DNA from: a virus
Length of the DNA stretch: 64,000 bases
Strand: one strand, 5' to 3'
IMG/VR virus record: IMGVR_UViG_3300025164_000635
Span: 1-64,000 of that record
Shown: piece by piece, positions 49,211 to 59,639 of the stretch
Numbering within the stretch: the first letter of the stretch is position 1
Layout: each line of letters begins with the position of its first letter
Notes under the pieces: generated by a model
Databases searched by the model: none
What the model was told of the DNA's origin: nothing
Seen by the model: the letters and a program-made list of their open reading frames with translations, nothing else
Translations under genes and position numbers: made by a program

Positions 49211-49469
49211 CTTGCCCCTCCTTGAGATATTCTCGACTTGCCTGAATGTACGCAGGCGGCTGTGTCCAGCCCGACAACAGTGCTAACCACACCCGCCCAA
49301 ATACTAGAGCCGATAGCCTTTCTCGCAAACTCAGCCGCCAGCAGGATACGCACTGCTCCCCATCTGACCATACTGCCAGCGGCACCACTCCCCCTACCCT
49401 CTCCGAGTAACTGTGACTGCTTGGAAACAAGACCTTGTTCGCTAACCCAAAAGCCACTGGCCTCATCCC
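49197..49469 (-). CDS. hypothetical protein (MRPV.F...LP.W.DG..CVSCW.L...ER...L..GR.WL.L....QPP)
   Basis: C-terminal part of ORF 49197..49649, start probably MRPVAF. Confidence 0.55.
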   Translation of the reverse strand, partial: GMRPVAFGLANKVLFPSSHSYSERVGGVVPLAVWSDGEQCVSCWRLSLRERLSALVFGRVWLALLSGWTQPPAYIQASREYLKEGQDAAA

Positions 49470-49811
49470 CCACCCCACCCCACCTGCTCCATCAGGGCTA
49501 CCAACGCTTCCGTCACCCGTATCCACTCGTCCCACTGCGCCACCAGACGCCTTGGCGCGTTCGCTCTCATCATCGACGCCCTCTCTATCAGCGCCCTCAA
49601 CTCCCCCACCCCCAACGGCCTCAAACTCTCTTCGGTCACCATCCCTCACACCTCCTCTTACAGAGTCCCCCTATTCTACCACTCCCCACCCTTCTCGGCC
49701 TCACCCACGCATACAACTTGGCCGCCGGAAAAGGGAGAAATATATAAGAACAGATGGCCTTTTAGTGAAGTATAGGGCTTTCTGTCCACATCCAGGAAAG
49801 GAGAAAGTGTC

Positions 49812-49919
49812 ATGTCACAGGTTGGTTCGTTCATTCTGTTGGTCGTGGCCGCCGTGTTCATTCTGGCTGGTGGTGGCGCAGGCGTCATCATCGGGCAACT
49901 GTTCACGATGGGCTTCTAA
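49812..49919 (+). CDS. 35-aa membrane peptide, first gene of the rightward early cluster (not in ORF track)
   Basis: AGGAAAGGAGA RBS; MSQVGSFILLVVAAVFILAGGGAGVIIGQLFTMGF. Confidence 0.6.
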   Translation: MSQVGSFILLVVAAVFILAGGGAGVIIGQLFTMGF

Positions 49920-50019
49920 CTGAATAGCAGAGGCAGAGGGGCAACCGAAAGGTTGTGTCCCTCGCCCTCTGGGATTCAGCCGAAAGGCTATACCAAGAAT
50001 CCTGGAAAGGAGAACAGCC

Positions 50020-50265
50020 ATGTTGCAGATCAACCATGTCGAGATCAGGACAATCGAGGCCGCGAAACTGATGGACTTCGTGGGCAAGGCGCAACCGTCT
50101 GCTTGGGGTATCGGTCGGTATGCCCTGCAGGCAGGGCAGCCCACCATCCAGGTTGAGCAGCGGGTGTGCCATGCCGCCGCTCTTGAACTGCGCCAGTTGG
50201 CCGCAGAGAAGGACATCGCCAACCCGGCGCTGTTCGCTATTGCGGCCTATCTCGGCAATCTGTAA
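50020..50265 (+). CDS. early hypothetical protein
   Basis: AAGGAGA RBS. Confidence 0.65.
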   Translation: MLQINHVEIRTIEAAKLMDFVGKAQPSAWGIGRYALQAGQPTIQVEQRVCHAAALELRQLAAEKDIANPALFAIAAYLGNL

Positions 50266-50369
50266 AACAACTGAATATCGCAGAGAGGGGCTAGGCCATA
50301 GGCTTAGCTCTAATGCGGCATACCGGTCTCAAGCCCGGTAAACCCATGTCGCATAAAGGAGAAAGAGTC

Positions 50370-50561
50370 ATGCGTACAGTTATCCAGGACCGGGTAGCTT
50401 CAGAAGCTACTCGGAGAGCATACGAACGTATGATGGAGAGCAACCCAAGACCCAGCTACCAGCCTCAGTCTGAGGCCGAAGCCTGGAGACAGGCGTGGAT
50501 CTCAGGCAAGGTCAGCCTAGGGGATGTCCCGGCTCGCTATCGCTCCCTCGTTGCTCGCTAA
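50370..50561 (+). CDS. early hypothetical protein
   Basis: AAGGAGA RBS before MRTVIQ. Confidence 0.6.
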   Translation: MRTVIQDRVASEATRRAYERMMESNPRPSYQPQSEAEAWRQAWISGKVSLGDVPARYRSLVAR

Positions 50562-50676
50562 CAATCGAATATCTGCCTTCTTCCAGGAAGGCAGAGCAGG
50601 CTCATTCTCTCGGAGGAGGATGGGCCTGCTCTGCTTTCTGGGACTAGAGCCCAGAGCAGAGAAAAGGAGAATCACC

Positions 50677-50871
50677 ATGACGTACCCGAAAGGCTACACC
50701 AACGACTACGCTACCATCTGGGAGCAACGCATGAGCAAGGCCATCGGCCTGCACCTACACTGGCTGACTGAGGCATGCTACCAGGCCGCTCTTTACAGCG
50801 ACCGCCTCACCATCCAGGCTCAGGTCAAGCTGGGCAAGCTCTACATGGCTGCCAGCAAGGGCGGCAAGTAG
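50677..50871 (+). CDS. early hypothetical protein
   Basis: AAGGAGA RBS before MTYPKG. Confidence 0.65.
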   Translation: MTYPKGYTNDYATIWEQRMSKAIGLHLHWLTEACYQAALYSDRLTIQAQVKLGKLYMAASKGGK

Positions 50872-50982
50872 TCGTCAATCTACTTCTGTCTTCCCCTCCG
50901 GGAAGGCAGAGGCTTGGGTATCACGGTATCCAAGCCTCTGCCTTTCGGGACTAGAGCCCGAAGCAGAGAAAAGGAGAAACCC

Positions 50983-51252
50983 ATGTCTCACAAGATCATC
51001 TTCGTGCTGGTGCTGGTCGGGCTGATGCTGGCCTTCACGGCCTGTGATGCCTCGAAAGAGGCAGGCTGGACGACCTCCTGTATCCGGGAGTACAAGGCCG
51101 CCAACGATGGGGCTGATCCGGATGCGGACACACTCAAGGCGTGCGTTGAGGCCAAGAGAGATGCTGCTGAGTCTCTCAACAAGACACTCAATCAGGGCAA
51201 GCAGCAGGCCGAAGCCCTGGTTGCTACACCCGTCCCTGACCCCAATAAGTAG
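50983..51252 (+). CDS. lipoprotein (possible superinfection exclusion)
   Basis: MSHKIIFVLVLVGLMLAFTAC lipobox; RBS. Confidence 0.7.
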   Translation: MSHKIIFVLVLVGLMLAFTACDASKEAGWTTSCIREYKAANDGADPDADTLKACVEAKRDAAESLNKTLNQGKQQAEALVATPVPDPNK

Positions 51253-51384
51253 CAAGCTATAGACAACCAAATATCGCTTCACCCCTGCTCCCTCATGGGA
51301 GCAGACCAGAGCCACTCTCCTGCGAGGGCGGCTCTGGTCTGCTTCTGGGACTAGAGCCCAGGCAAACAGAAAGGAGTAGTAGCC

Positions 51385-51879
51385 ATGTTACACAATCCGT
51401 TGTTCTGGTTCTGTGTTGCAGCTCTGCTTGTTGCTATCCATGAGCTGATCGTCCGCAATCGCAACCCCTTCTACGAGCTGGACTTGCGGGAGTATTACGA
51501 GCCGAGCTCCCAGGAAGGGGATGAGTGCCCCATCTGCGGTGTCATGGGCGGGCACGATGCCGAGATATGCACGGGTGATGAGTATGCCGGCGTGTGCCGT
51601 GAGGACTTCTATGTCCAATTCGGCAACACCCCAGAAGTTCGGGAGCTGTATCACATCTGGGTCTCTGAGGCTAATGTGGAGTTCCGCTGGATGGTCATGG
51701 ATATGTGCGGCATGTACGGTGCCTCCGAGACCTTGGGCCGCCTCCGGGAAGCCATCAACGAGGAGCGGCCTCTCGACTTGCCATCCAGCAAAGAGATGCA
51801 CCGCCGCATCCTCCGGGCTTGCCCCGATCCCGACCTCGCCCGCGGTATGGGTGAGGAGACCCTCTACAGAGTGCGATAG
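51385..51879 (+). CDS. membrane-anchored protein with a CPIC...H...C motif
   Basis: N-terminal TM helix; AAGGAG RBS. Confidence 0.6.
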   Translation: MLHNPLFWFCVAALLVAIHELIVRNRNPFYELDLREYYEPSSQEGDECPICGVMGGHDAEICTGDEYAGVCREDFYVQFGNTPEVRELYHIWVSEANVEFRWMVMDMCGMYGASETLGRLREAINEERPLDLPSSKEMHRRILRACPDPDLARGMGEETLYRVR

Positions 51880-51887
51880 GAGGAACA

Positions 51888-52307
51888 GTGGATAAGTATG
51901 TACGGGTCCGTCTGACGAGCGCTAGCCTCTTGGCGCAGTCAGATCCCTTCCCAGTGTTGTTGTGGTACGACGCCAGGAAGCGGGCCGTCCACCTGAAGGT
52001 CATCTCCAGCGCGGGTGGGCGGTATGACGTGCACCTTCGGTTCCAGGTGCACGAGGGCAAGGCTTACCTCATGGATCGGATGTGCTTCTGTGAGGACTTC
52101 GAGTCCTCGATGAAGCACTTCGACATGCTCCAGGAGCTCGGGATGCCGGTTGAGGGGAGTGCCTTGCCTCTCTATCGGGGCCTGCCCATCTGCAAGCACA
52201 TCCTGCTCGGCGGTCTGAAGGTGATCGCCGAGAACTGGGTGGCCCTCTTCCTGGATGGGCAGCCGCAGGCTAAAGCCTTCCAGGAAGATGAAGTCCTGCC
52301 GTTCTAG
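51888..52307 (+). CDS. SWIM zinc-finger protein
   Basis: SS..G.Y.V...CFCEDF...ICKHI. Confidence 0.75.
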   Translation: MDKYVRVRLTSASLLAQSDPFPVLLWYDARKRAVHLKVISSAGGRYDVHLRFQVHEGKAYLMDRMCFCEDFESSMKHFDMLQELGMPVEGSALPLYRGLPICKHILLGGLKVIAENWVALFLDGQPQAKAFQEDEVLPF

Positions 52308-52476
52308 CACGAGCAAAACAACACACGTGCCTCTTGTGCACTCCAATGACGCCACTGGTGTCTGGACATGCAAGAGAGGCATGTGCCATATCATGCCGAA
52401 AGGCAGCGCTTGGCCGCGTTACAGCCGATTGAACGACCTGATAGGCAGGAATCAACCTACATAAAGGAGAACAGCC

Positions 52477-54879
52477 ATGTCGTTCACGTCATTTCGCTCT
52501 ACCCGTAAGGTGGTTGTGGTGGACCGCTTCGGGCGACCCACCGGAGAGGAAAGGATTCTCTCTAACAGCCCGATCGACGCCCTGTTCCCTGACGAGAAGA
52601 TCGTCATGGTGAACTGGAAGTACGAGGGCGCGAAGGCGCCCACCGCTGAAGAGTTGCGCCGGCCGATCCGCCACGGCGGCAACGAGTACCGTGGTGACTG
52701 GGCCTGGGGCAGCAGCGTCAAGCGCGGATACACTGTGGGCCTGACCCGTGACCTGCTGGTGGACACGGGATTGCTGAACTGCTGTGAGGACGCCCACCGA
52801 TTCGGTCGGGCGTTCCTTGCCAACGGCCTGTATGGGGCCGGGAAGGGTGAGCTGCACATCAAGTTCGTGCCCGAAGGGACTCAGACCCTGGCCGGCCCGG
52901 TGGCGGACGGCTTCGGGTATGTGAGACGCTCGGTGGCCGAGAAGATGAATGCCGGACACGACAAGATCAAGTTCGGCACCGCGCGCGACTCGTCGCACTG
53001 GTGGCAGCGCATTCCCTGGACATCCGAGATCCAGGAAGAGCTGGAGCCGCTTCTGCGTGACAACCTGGTGGAGGCTGGTGACCCCGGGTTGTGGATGTTG
53101 AGGCAGTTAGGCGACCGCGATCAGGGTCGCCGCCACCTGGTCGAAGCCGAGCCGTTGATGGCTGAGCACCCGTATGTGGCGAACATGCTCATGAGGGTGT
53201 CCTCAGACATCCTGGCCCGGGCGGCCACGACGGTCCCCCTGAATCACGCGGTGAAGGTTACTGTGCCCGCGAACGTCCCCAACATCGCTGTGGACGGGAA
53301 AACACTGAGCACGCGCTACCCGATCGATGCCAAGAACTCCATCCGGGCGAACAACAACACGCTCAACACCGTGGAAGCCGAGATGGAGCGGATTGCCGAG
53401 ATGGAGCGGATTGCCCAGATGGAGGTCATTCAGTATGGCATGACCTCCATGGGTGACCATCCCTTCTCGGCTAAAGGCTGCGCCGGGATCGTTGACGATG
53501 ATCTCCTCGATGCCGACTTCGTGTTGTGCACGAAGGACATCAAGATGGGTGACAAGAAGTTGGTGGACATCAAGGCGGAGATCGTGGTCTCGGTGACCCA
53601 GTGGTTTGCCCAGGGCGAGGCGGTCGGTGTGAATACGAAGTTCTGGGCCGACCAGGGCGGTGATTGCGACGGCGATCTGGCGTTGATCGCCGATTGCAGT
53701 GAGTTGCCCCGCCTGTGGGAGGCGGTTAGCGGGTTTGGGCTCCAGCCCACGCCCAAGCTCATCAAGACTCACACGAAGCTGGAGGACGAGGACATCCGGG
53801 GTGAGTTGGCTGAGAAATCCATGCTGAATGTGGTCGGCATGGCAGTCAACCTCATGGCTGCGACGTTTGTCACGGCCAACCGGGAAGAGATGGCCCACCG
53901 CCTGGGCTATGCGAGTGAGGCTGCCCTGGATAACGCCCTGAATTACTGGGTGAAAGCAGGCACGGATCTCTTCAAGGTGTCTGTCGACACCAAGCAGCTC
54001 ATGCAAGATCTCTCTCGGTTCCAGAGCAAGCTGGTCAATGTGCTCGGTACGCTGCCGCCGTGGGTGAGCTGGCCCAACGACTGGGCCTTCACGCACGGCG
54101 TCCCGTCCTTCTGGAACGAGGACGAGATGGGTCACCTGAAGAGCGACGATCCTGTTCGGAAGAATGCCGTTCCTACCAATTCCTGGTACGACGGGACCAT
54201 CGTCCAGATCATGAGGCTGACCCTGCTCGCCCTCAGCGCGATGCTGAGCCATACCCTGGCTGTGCGGCCGCTGCATGACTTCCAGAGATGGGCCCTGGTT
54301 GTGCCGGACAGTGTTCTGGGGCCCGCGATCGGTCTCCAGAAGATGTTCGTAGCCGAGTCCCAGCGCGTCAACTGGGAGTGGCCCCAGGATGTCGTCCGCT
54401 TCAGCCAGTGGTGGGCCGAGAAGGTCGCCACCTGGAAGAACGAGATGGGCCTGGATGACACCCTAGCCTGCGCTGCTATCTGGCGCGCGGCCCATGACAT
54501 GCGGAGCAAATACGCCGGGGCGTCGTCTGTGTTCATGGCCTTCCCGGAAGAAGTACTGGATATTCTCCGGGATAAGCCCGGCCTCTCCAAGTTGGTGTCT
54601 GGTGTCATCCTCGGCCTGCCCGAAGTGACCGAGGAGACGGTCATCCAGGGCACCGTTCGGGAGTTCAAACGCAAGGACTCACAGTCCGGCCGGACCGTCA
54701 TCCGCAAGTGCTTGGTGGACGGTAACTCGGGCCTACCCCATATGCCCGACATCAACTACCCGGGCGCGATTGCCGTCTTTGCTTCGGATCACCCGTCGCC
54801 CGAGAATGGGCTGAAGGTGACCGTCAAGGTCACCCGGCGCACCAAGAAGTCCTGGTTCGCTGATTGCATCTGCCAGTAG
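52477..54879 (+). CDS. single-subunit two-barrel RNA polymerase (YonO / cellular-RdRP-like)
   Basis: ADGFGYV, TRYP, QY...SAKGC...DFVL..KDIK, catalytic GGDCDGD (53662-53676), G...N...AGTDLFK. Confidence 0.8.
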   Translation: MSFTSFRSTRKVVVVDRFGRPTGEERILSNSPIDALFPDEKIVMVNWKYEGAKAPTAEELRRPIRHGGNEYRGDWAWGSSVKRGYTVGLTRDLLVDTGLLNCCEDAHRFGRAFLANGLYGAGKGELHIKFVPEGTQTLAGPVADGFGYVRRSVAEKMNAGHDKIKFGTARDSSHWWQRIPWTSEIQEELEPLLRDNLVEAGDPGLWMLRQLGDRDQGRRHLVEAEPLMAEHPYVANMLMRVSSDILARAATTVPLNHAVKVTVPANVPNIAVDGKTLSTRYPIDAKNSIRANNNTLNTVEAEMERIAEMERIAQMEVIQYGMTSMGDHPFSAKGCAGIVDDDLLDADFVLCTKDIKMGDKKLVDIKAEIVVSVTQWFAQGEAVGVNTKFWADQGGDCDGDLALIADCSELPRLWEAVSGFGLQPTPKLIKTHTKLEDEDIRGELAEKSMLNVVGMAVNLMAATFVTANREEMAHRLGYASEAALDNALNYWVKAGTDLFKVSVDTKQLMQDLSRFQSKLVNVLGTLPPWVSWPNDWAFTHGVPSFWNEDEMGHLKSDDPVRKNAVPTNSWYDGTIVQIMRLTLLALSAMLSHTLAVRPLHDFQRWALVVPDSVLGPAIGLQKMFVAESQRVNWEWPQDVVRFSQWWAEKVATWKNEMGLDDTLACAAIWRAAHDMRSKYAGASSVFMAFPEEVLDILRDKPGLSKLVSGVILGLPEVTEETVIQGTVREFKRKDSQSGRTVIRKCLVDGNSGLPHMPDINYPGAIAVFASDHPSPENGLKVTVKVTRRTKKSWFADCICQ

Positions 54880-54887
54880 CATAGGTT

Positions 54888-54917
54888 CCGAGGCCGATCT
54901 TCGGATCGGCTCTCGGC
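54888..54917 (+). other. hairpin with C(UUCG)G tetraloop right after the RNAP gene
   Basis: CCGAGGCCGATC-TTCG-GATCGGCTCTCGG. Confidence 0.6.
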
Positions 54918-55106
54918 TTCTGGGTAGGTGAAAGCCCATCCAGAAGCCGGGAAGGAACTTACCTTCTCTAGCGTGGAGTCTCACCACACTCTCCCTCCCA
55001 CGGGGCACGGCAGCCTACTTCCGGGCTACCGCCGTCTTCCCCCTGGGGCTAACGCCGCACTAAAGCTCCGAGAGGAAGCAAACTCCTATAGGAAAGGTGG
55101 TGTAGC

Positions 55107-55430
55107 ATGTCCAAGTTCCTGAACCGTGACGTTGACCTGAAGGCGAAGGTCGCTGGCAAGCCCGGTACCGGTACGCCCGGCCCGCGGCAGCCCGTAGCCA
55201 CGACCGACATCAACGTGACGCAGCTCGAGGCGTTCGCGGCCAAGCTGGAAGCGACGTACCCCAAGCTGGAGCCCAACGACCGCGCCATCGCCAACAGCAT
55301 GAACCCGGCGACGGGCAAGGCCAATATCCTCCTGGCCGGCATCAGTCGCGCCCGGGGTGACAAGGCCAGCGTGACCGTGTACAGCACCGGCCGCGTTGTC
55401 TGGGCGGGCGTCCCCGCGTTCACTCTGTAG
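55107..55430 (+). CDS. hypothetical protein
   Basis: AGGAAAGGTGG RBS; strongly biased codons. Confidence 0.65.
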   Translation: MSKFLNRDVDLKAKVAGKPGTGTPGPRQPVATTDINVTQLEAFAAKLEATYPKLEPNDRAIANSMNPATGKANILLAGISRARGDKASVTVYSTGRVVWAGVPAFTL

Positions 55431-55618: not shown

Positions 55619-55657
55619 GGAGCCGGTGCCCGCGGCGGGTGCCGGCTCCCCTCTTTT
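55619..55657 (+). terminator. intrinsic terminator
   Basis: GGAGCCGG...CCGGCTCC GC-rich stem followed by CTCTTTT. Confidence 0.6.
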
Positions 55658-55659
55658 GA

Positions 55660-56650
55660 ACAGGTGCCCTGAGAGCAGCCCCAGATGACGGGCGGGGTAT
55701 TAAAGCAGGCCAAAACCCTCACCCCGATGACCGTTCCAAATATCATCCCAGGCTGCTCTTAGGGAATCTGTCCTTAAAAAGGCAACAGGCTCTCGCATGA
55801 GGGTCACCCAGGGGCACACCAGGGGCCCTGAAGGGGTGCAATCCCTGTGGCCCGTTGGAACTTCCGGGAAGTACACGGTGGTAGAACGGGCGTTCTATTG
55901 AGGCGGGACTGAGTAGGCGTCGGCAGATTATGAGGGGAGTCACCCTGGAGCGGGCTCTCACGAGTCGTGACGTGAGTGGTGCCGTGCGGACTGAACGTGA
56001 GGTGGCCCGTGCGGACTGCCCTCATAGTCTGCCGAGGCGGACACAGTTCTGCCACGGTGGGGTGGAAGGCCCTGCGGGGCGTGCATGCGCTTGAATCATG
56101 CAGCCGGCAAGTAATGGCTAGAGTAGCCTCTGGTCCCGTGATCACTATGCGGGGAAAGGCAGGCTTGAGCAGGGAATGCGTGCACGCGCCCTGTCAAGGG
56201 AGTTCTGCCGGGCGTGTCTCTAACCCTGGGCACGCAGCACAATCCTAAGCCGGACTTTGAGGGCCGTGATGGATGGTGGGGGAGAGGCCGGGAAGAGTCT
56301 ATGACCGCCGGTGTTTCGGCACCAGGGCGACGGGCTCTTCCTGGCTGGCTCCCATGACCTGTTTCTCTCATGTGTCCGATGGCCGAGAAGGGCTTCAAGG
56401 CAGGCAGTGGAGGCGTGTGGACGATAATTCCTACGCTGGAAACTGCCGTCACAGTTAGGTTCGTGTGACTACGTGGCCGGCTGTGGCCGAGTGGACTGGT
56501 CATCCACTCGTAATGTGCGGGTTCGACTCCCGCCAGCACGCTTTCATGAGCAGTATAGACGCTTTTTGGTTTGAGGCTATCGGGCATTCATACTGGCCTC
56601 AAACCCAAACGGGCGATCTATCCTATTGTTTCGGCAATGGGATAGTGAGA
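55660..56650 (+). ncRNA. candidate large structured ncRNA region
   Basis: about 1 kb without a convincing RBS-led ORF; long stems 55667-55680/55751-55764 and 55920-55936/56019-56035, each with a + strand G-U pair; T-loop GGTTCGACTCC at ~56520. Confidence 0.5.
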
Positions 56651-56683
56651 TAAGGAACACATTGCCTGGAAGGGAGGCAACCG

Positions 56684-58140: not shown

Positions 58141-58179
58141 CGTCTTCTAAACGTTTCGCCGCGAAACGTTTAGAAGACG
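58141..58179. repeat. 39-bp palindrome (19-bp perfect arms, 1-nt centre)
   Basis: CGTCTTCTAAACGTTTCGC-C-GCGAAACGTTTAGAAGACG. Confidence 0.95.
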
Positions 58180-59607: not shown

Positions 59608-59639
59608 TTGACAAACTCTTGATTGGGTGTATAATCAAG
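59608..59639 (+). promoter_or_regulatory. consensus sigma70 promoter overlapped by an inverted repeat
   Basis: TTGACA (59608-13), 16-nt spacer, TATAAT (59630-35); CTTGATT-N8-AATCAAG (59618-59639). Confidence 0.8.

Follow-up and report, generated by a model that had tools for sequence, protein, structure and literature searches.

Single-chain RNA polymerases (RNAPs) with a two-barrel core connect the enzymes of cellular transcription with the polymerases of eukaryotic RNA interference (RNAi). The few experimentally characterised members named in the literature consulted are QDE-1, RDR2, gp66 of a crAss-like phage, and gp64 and gp96 of the phage P23-45. YonO of the Bacillus prophage SPbeta is a further experimentally characterised single-chain two-barrel RNAP. 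The subject here is a gene for a putative polymerase of the same kind, located at 52477-54879 on the plus strand of the window, the stretch of viral DNA that comprises the first 64 kb of a 95,304-bp IMG/VR contig (IMGVR_UViG_3300025164_000635) rated complete by CheckV. Its 800-residue product (P0001) is very probably, judging from its predicted structure, a phage single-chain RNAP that shares its catalytic fold with the cellular RNAPs and the RNAi polymerases.

In QDE-1, two metal ions are held by D709 in barrel 1 together with D1007, D1009, and D1011 in barrel 2, while the product and the incoming nucleoside triphosphate (NTP) are held by Q736, R738, K743, and K767; a bridge helix and a trigger loop follow (PMC9508822). 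The two-barrel families have little in common beyond the DxDxD region (Chaban et al. 2024, PMC10770324).

The gene, its family and its predicted fold

The open reading frame (ORF) begins with an ATG and remains open across 800 codons. The 18-nt stretch from its ribosome-binding site (RBS) to its start is repeated identically at 50006-50023. Two antisense ORFs within the gene (53203-54276 and 54132-54755) found no support. The gene and the domains of its product are laid out as follows, with the basis of each assignment in brackets.

52477..54879, plus strand: predicted two-barrel RNA polymerase gene (ORF, 140-cluster family, model pLDDT 93.2, fold matches)
52463..52469, plus strand: RBS AAAGGAG, 7 nt ahead of the polymerase ATG
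52477..52830, plus strand: N-terminal beta-rich domain, residues 1-118, with an invariant WGSxxK (G78, K82) (conservation, secondary structure)
52831..53226, plus strand: putative first barrel region (DPBB-B/DPBB1) plus helices, residues 119-250 (conservation, model, fold alignment)
53227..53751, plus strand: catalytic barrel (DPBB-A/DPBB2), residues 251-425, with R280-x-P282, K333, and K356 (fold alignment, conservation)
53377..53430, plus strand: three tandem copies of an 18-nt repeat (AEMERI-AEMERI-AQMEVI) in a helix, residues 299-313
53662..53676, plus strand: codons of the putative metal-binding loop D396-C-D398-G399-D400 (Asp residues invariant in 80 homologs)
53797..54051, plus strand: bridge-helix-like helices and a helical hairpin, residues 441-525 (model helices, conservation, beta-prime alignments)
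54052..54591, plus strand: helical C-terminal part, clamp/head-like, residues 526-705, with W669, H673, and F686 (RDR2, QDE-1, and gp62 alignments, which reach to about 701-705)
54592..54876, plus strand: C-terminal beta domain, residues 706-800 (outside every polymerase match, all of which end by residue 705)

All seven peptides on which the first-pass annotation had based its call of a single-subunit RNAP were found where it had placed them: ADGFGYV at residue 143, TRYP at 279, SAKGC at 331, DFVLCTKDIK at 347, DQGGDCDGD at 392, VGMAVN at 453, and AGTDLFK at 494. Searches of the protein against Pfam, PHROGs, NCBIfam, and the PDB sequences (the last with phmmer) gave nothing meaningful, and tblastn against the phage and plasmid collections gave no match. 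A word-indexed search found 9 homologs with 33-41% identity, and when 1.84 billion representatives were searched exhaustively with phmmer, 140 clusters were recovered (74 with E below 1e-30), whose members are mostly 780-950 residues long. In other words, the protein is a member of a family known only from metagenomes, with about 140 clusters at 50% identity and no database annotation. Across 80 full-length homologs, K82, G145, P282, D396, D398, and D400 are invariant, and conservation is 90% or higher for D144, R280, K333, K356, G399, K427, K430, G454, D497, and K500. Because this conservation extends over 80 full-length members, the DxDGD loop is under strong selection and is no chance motif.

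The fold was predicted from the 80-sequence alignment (pLDDT 93.2, pTM 0.90); an earlier model from a 10-sequence alignment was discarded (pLDDT 60). All 21 Foldseek matches in the PDB at E<=1e-3 were chains of QDE-1 or RDR2, the best with an E of 5e-8 and a probability of 1.00, and P74 gp62, P23-45 gp64, and gp96 came next in the ranking. Fold matches in BFVD were proteins of uncultured phages auto-named 'RNA dependent RNA polymerase', plus gp64. A two-barrel fold, whose absence would have counted against the first-pass reading, is thus predicted, with QDE-1 and RDR2 as the top matches. A Foldseek comparison with both YonO and QDE-1 had been suggested earlier; QDE-1 was matched, and no YonO structure appeared among the matches. 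The reading as a single-subunit two-barrel RNAP is therefore upheld at the level of predicted structure by the model, the fold matches, and the invariant DxDGD.

The sequential structural alignment to RDR2 takes in 551 residues within 9-705, which leaves a rearranged motif order without support, and whole-chain alignments to RDR2, QDE-1, and gp62 run in sequential order over residues from about 5 to 705. The DPBB domains of beta-prime and Rpb1 align to model residues from about 250 to 425, the catalytic barrel with its DxDGD loop, and the beta-prime alignments run on to about residues 524-582, taking in helices 441-465 and 481-523. The D396-D400 loop aligns with the DFDGD of gp96, the DYDGD of gp64, the DNDGD of YonO, and the loop of jumbo-phage beta-prime.

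How far can the active site of QDE-1 be traced in the phage protein? The order of the residues is the same: D144-G145, Q177-R178, D396/D398/D400, helices 441-465, and the GTDxFK hairpin. Q177-R178 follow D144 as Q736/R738 follow D709 in QDE-1, and D144-G145 is a candidate for the fourth catalytic Asp. A conserved SMxNxVGxAxN (448-458) lies in the bridge-helix-like helices, and the helical hairpin with GTDxFK (D497, K500) may correspond to the trigger-loop region. From the model, residues 1-118 may be the counterpart of the QDE-1 slab domain and the auxiliary helix of DPBB1. Helix 299-313 with the AEMERI repeat is an insertion relative to the homologs, and the repeat looks like a recent in-frame expansion.

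Genome layout and the proposed role of the enzyme

It is probable that the protein is a single-chain, two-barrel, Mg-dependent RNAP that is made inside the infected cell (non-virion) and transcribes phage genes. Two metal ions would be bound by D396, D398, and D400 of the catalytic barrel, with D144 of the other barrel probably contributing, and the basic residues K82, R178, K333, K356, K427, and K430 would keep the 3' end of the RNA and the incoming NTP in place. Helices 441-465 would act as a bridge helix and the GTDxFK hairpin (D497, K500) as a trigger loop. The enzyme would transcribe phage DNA, its presumed template, without relying on the host polymerase. The labels 'non-virion' and 'early' come from the position of the gene only. 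That position and the promoters of the genome are as follows.

49812..55430, plus strand: nine-gene RBS-led operon with ORFs at 49812, 50020, 50370, 50677, 50983, 51385, 51888, 52477, and 55107
55619..55649, plus strand: intrinsic-terminator-like hairpin of 14 pairs, followed by CCTCTTTTGA
59608-59635, 75299-75327, 79082-79109, 86602-86630, plus strand: four near-perfect sigma-70 promoters (of five), two scoring 12/12 and two 11/12

The polymerase gene is the eighth of the nine genes in the operon, which likely ends at the 55619-55649 hairpin and which diverges from the terminase/portal/capsid block. The same orientation of the homolog was seen in two loci of related phages (L004 and L027). 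The structural block occupies 38 kb of the minus strand, from about 11 to 49 kb, and carries terminase, portal, and tail-fibre-like genes. The plus-strand block begins at about 49.8 kb, reaches the end of the contig and continues at 1-10.8 kb; its genes include those for a DnaB-like helicase, a DnaG-type primase, ParB, methyltransferases, and RadC. The large ORFs of the genome revealed no further RNAP family.

Sites scoring at least 11/12 against the sigma-70 consensus numbered five genome-wide against 0.45 expected, about an eleven-fold enrichment, with a maximum of 2 in 100 shuffles. All four located promoters are downstream of the polymerase operon, the first of them within the window. The structural block contains no site of this quality, and no sigma-70-like site was present in 48.8-56 kb when the E. 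coli consensus was used, from which Chloroflexota-type host promoters may differ. The simplest reading is that the host RNAP serves the replication/accessory block and that a different polymerase is required for the early operon and the late block. The 800-residue enzyme is a candidate for that polymerase, at least for the late block. Its most likely targets would be the genes without host-type promoters, that is, those of the 38-kb structural block and perhaps also those of the enzyme's operon, and the host RNAP would transcribe the replication/accessory block from 59.6 kb on through the near-perfect sigma-70 promoters. The polymerase gene itself would be expressed, presumably early, from the promoter-consensus-free operon adjoining the divergence point.

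Several points weigh against this proposal. Polymerase activity and the transcription of phage genes are predicted from the fold, the conservation, and the gene position, and the residue-to-barrel equivalences with QDE-1 are proposals from order and alignment. The possible difference between Chloroflexota-type promoters and the E. coli consensus weakens the argument from missing host promoters. The target genes are a guess because no phage-specific promoter motif was found: a genome-wide k-mer survey gave only the seven-copy parS-like palindrome GTTTCGCSGCGAAAC, and TGGGAC, which recurs in gaps of the late block, was rejected as a promoter motif as it has no intergenic enrichment. Finally, the fold does not settle the template preference because the best structural matches are RNA-dependent enzymes. 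One alternative is that the enzyme acts mainly on RNA templates, or makes primers or double-stranded RNA like QDE-1 and RDR2, instead of serving as a phage transcriptase; this is unlikely.

That the polymerase is packaged in the virion and injected with the DNA, like crAss-like gp66 or the N4 virion RNAP, appears still less likely. The gene is not part of the structural block but is encoded on the other strand among small early-type ORFs, and its product has 800 residues, compared with about 2170 for the gp66 chain and 5,002 for gp96; moreover, a separate giant protein of the virion module with a DADGD motif, described below, is a better candidate for it. It is very improbable that the protein is a two-barrel enzyme with another kind of catalysis, such as a PolD-like DNA polymerase, or a relic without enzymatic activity: no DNA polymerase was recognised in the 95-kb genome and the two-barrel core is common to PolD (PMC10770324), but no PolD chain is among the matches listed, the top ranks are all RNAPs, and the catalytic-loop residues, being invariant across about 80 diverse homologs, argue against a relic.

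The structured leader and the UUCG hairpin that the first-pass annotation had described on either side of the gene are both present. The leader hairpin at 52324-52385 (plus strand) has a free energy (dG) of -37.8 kcal/mol and a z of -5.8, and none of 200 shuffles was as stable; comparable long hairpins lie upstream of the homologs at 5 of 7 loci, without sequence conservation. The UUCG hairpin at 54888-54916 (plus strand, loop 54900-54903, dG -23.5, z -3.1) overlaps a stronger alternative hairpin at 54911-54952 (dG -31.3), and neither contains a U-tract.

Other RNA elements mark the operon and its surroundings. A Type-P5 twister ribozyme lies at 50279-50338 (plus strand) between operon genes 2 and 3 and matches Rfam RF02684 at 50 bits (E 3e-8; gathering score 37.6). 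Three leader modules on the plus strand (50582-50671, 50897-50978, and 51300-51378) head three consecutive small early ORFs; each consists of a hairpin with 20-28-bp arms, then an invariant GGGACTAGAGCCC, then AAAGGAG and the start codon. Their hairpin stems are unrelated in sequence, and Rfam gives only spurious microRNA-hairpin matches for them. Past the operon terminator, about 1 kb (55650-56680, plus strand) is without an RBS-led ORF, has a positive GC skew, and contains long imperfect inverted repeats (e.g. 55902-55941 with 56014-56053); an Rfam search of this region matched no family. On the other side of the operon, the 600 bp that separate it from the divergent late operon (49211-49811) show a strong C excess on the plus strand, with a GC skew down to -0.59 and runs like CCCCACCCCACC, and end in an AT-rich patch, AAATATATAAGAAC, just ahead of the first early gene.

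The seven copies of the palindrome are at genome positions 8298, 40008, 58153, 67947, 75508, 85827, and 90519, the first three of them in the window, and the copy at 58141-58179 is extended to perfect arms of 19 nt. A ParB-like gene is located at genome positions 84992-85933. Together, the parS-like palindromes and the ParB-like gene suggest a partition system and so possibly a plasmid-like prophage lifestyle.

Host and a second candidate polymerase

Matches to the polymerase in genome collections point to Chloroflexota, as three of the four are in metagenome-assembled genomes (MAGs) of this phylum. A 286-kb contig of a Chloroflexia MAG carries a low-GC island of ~20 kb with a terminase-like gene and a polymerase homolog. 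This island and the giant protein of the window mentioned above are located as follows.

G001:C6, about 260-280 kb (loci L033-L037): island with the polymerase homolog, 809 residues, DHDGD loop
23604..33065, minus strand: 3153-residue virion-module protein with GDADGDQVALF at residues 1169-1179 (DADGD codons 29541-29555)

Since it contains no giant virion protein, the island may be what is left of a phage or else a satellite-like element. The family profile was found in one of 201 genomes of the class Chloroflexia, the MAG itself, and in none of the 200 others sampled. The host signal is weak, and the host of the phage is probably a mesophilic member of the Chloroflexota.

Near residue 1700 the 3153-residue protein has a Pro-rich linker; it also contains hydrophobic segments rich in Gly, and its C-terminus is a coiled coil. 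Its GDADGDQVALF resembles the active-site sequence of bacterial beta-prime. The DADGD motif, on which the whole case stands, makes it a tentative candidate for a fused, injected virion RNAP, recognised by the same logic as gp96 of P23-45. Searches against Pfam, PHROGs, and the PDB (phmmer) gave nothing, hhalign aligned only 19 columns to the polymerase family profile, and BLASTP against gp96 gave nothing. Homolog searches returned only a 96%-identical fragment and the ESM Atlas no usable match, nor did three records that carry homologs of the polymerase yield a relative. A neighbouring gene bears a weak resemblance to the adaptor of podovirus SU10, so the giant protein may be involved in ejection and not be a tape measure.

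One possibility, speculative and rather doubtful, is a two-polymerase cascade in the style of P23-45 that has arisen in an unrelated, probably Chloroflexota-infecting lineage. In such a cascade, the N-terminal ~1700 residues of the 3153-residue protein would be the injected RNAP. Its template would be the early operon, which is free of sigma-70 sites, is punctuated by a ribozyme and hairpins, and includes the gene of the 800-residue polymerase. The 800-residue enzyme, structurally the closest phage relative of the eukaryotic RNAi polymerases in this analysis, would then take over the late genes. The genome offers a test bed, in that its early operon has no host promoters, a separate block has textbook sigma-70 promoters, and one of its proteins is a candidate for an injected polymerase. 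A small orthogonal RNAP from a mesophilic phage could also become a tool if its promoter were defined.

Comparison with described polymerases

The first-pass annotation had called the protein similar to YonO and the eukaryotic RNA-dependent RNA polymerases (RdRPs); membership of either family did not hold at the level of sequence. Comparison of the family with YonO by hhalign was confined to 31 loop columns (E 0.25, probability 0.2%) and BLASTP found nothing. PF05183, the Pfam RdRP family, gave no match to the protein at E<=10, and a profile of the 80 homologs run against the PDB sequences found no RdRP chain. With gp64, the family profile aligned over 28 catalytic-loop columns (E 1.2e-3, probability 19%); its alignment with gp96 extended over 60 columns (probability 16.5%). 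Such short alignments agree with the likeness limited to DxDxD that Chaban et al. described. The signature peptides were absent from the searched supplements of that paper, which did not include Supplementary Data 3 (23 family alignments). The protein stands for a sequence family of its own, has the fold of the single-chain clade, and is a member of neither the YonO nor the PF05183 family.

The strongest structural likeness is to QDE-1 and RDR2 (PF05183; PDB 2J7N, 7Y7P-T, 7W82/7W84, 7ROZ), to which the identity is 11-13%; compared with them, the phage protein is without the N-terminal extension and without the dimerising C-tail, stands in a phage context, and is expected to use a DNA template. 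The predicted fold is equally close to RDR2/QDE-1 and to the phage enzymes, which bears on the proposed phage origin of the eukaryotic RdRPs. YonO has 839 residues compared with 800 here, and both are single chains with a DxDGD-type loop (DNDGD in YonO). However, yonO shares its strand with the SPbeta structural genes and lies directly upstream of them, whereas the polymerase gene here is on the strand opposite to the structural genes.

Gp66 (PDB 6VR4) of phi14:2, a crAss-like phage, and gp96 of P23-45 (8H2M/8H2N) are giant virion-packaged proteins, whereas the polymerase here is free-standing, has 800 residues, and is encoded outside the structural module. P23-45 gp64 and P74-26 gp62 (PDB 8F72, 8F5M; PMC10770324) are non-virion RNAPs of Thermus phages and a strong fold match to the protein described here. 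RNAPs of the gp64 kind stay out of the virion and transcribe early and middle genes from a promoter motif of their own. Gene 64 of P23-45 is also placed like the polymerase gene of the window, pointing away from the terminase/portal/capsid block. The differences are in length (616 compared with 800 residues), in the extra C-terminal beta domain here (706-800), and in the host, which here is probably a mesophilic member of the Chloroflexota. Thus, the protein adds a new sequence family to the known phage single-chain two-barrel RNAPs.
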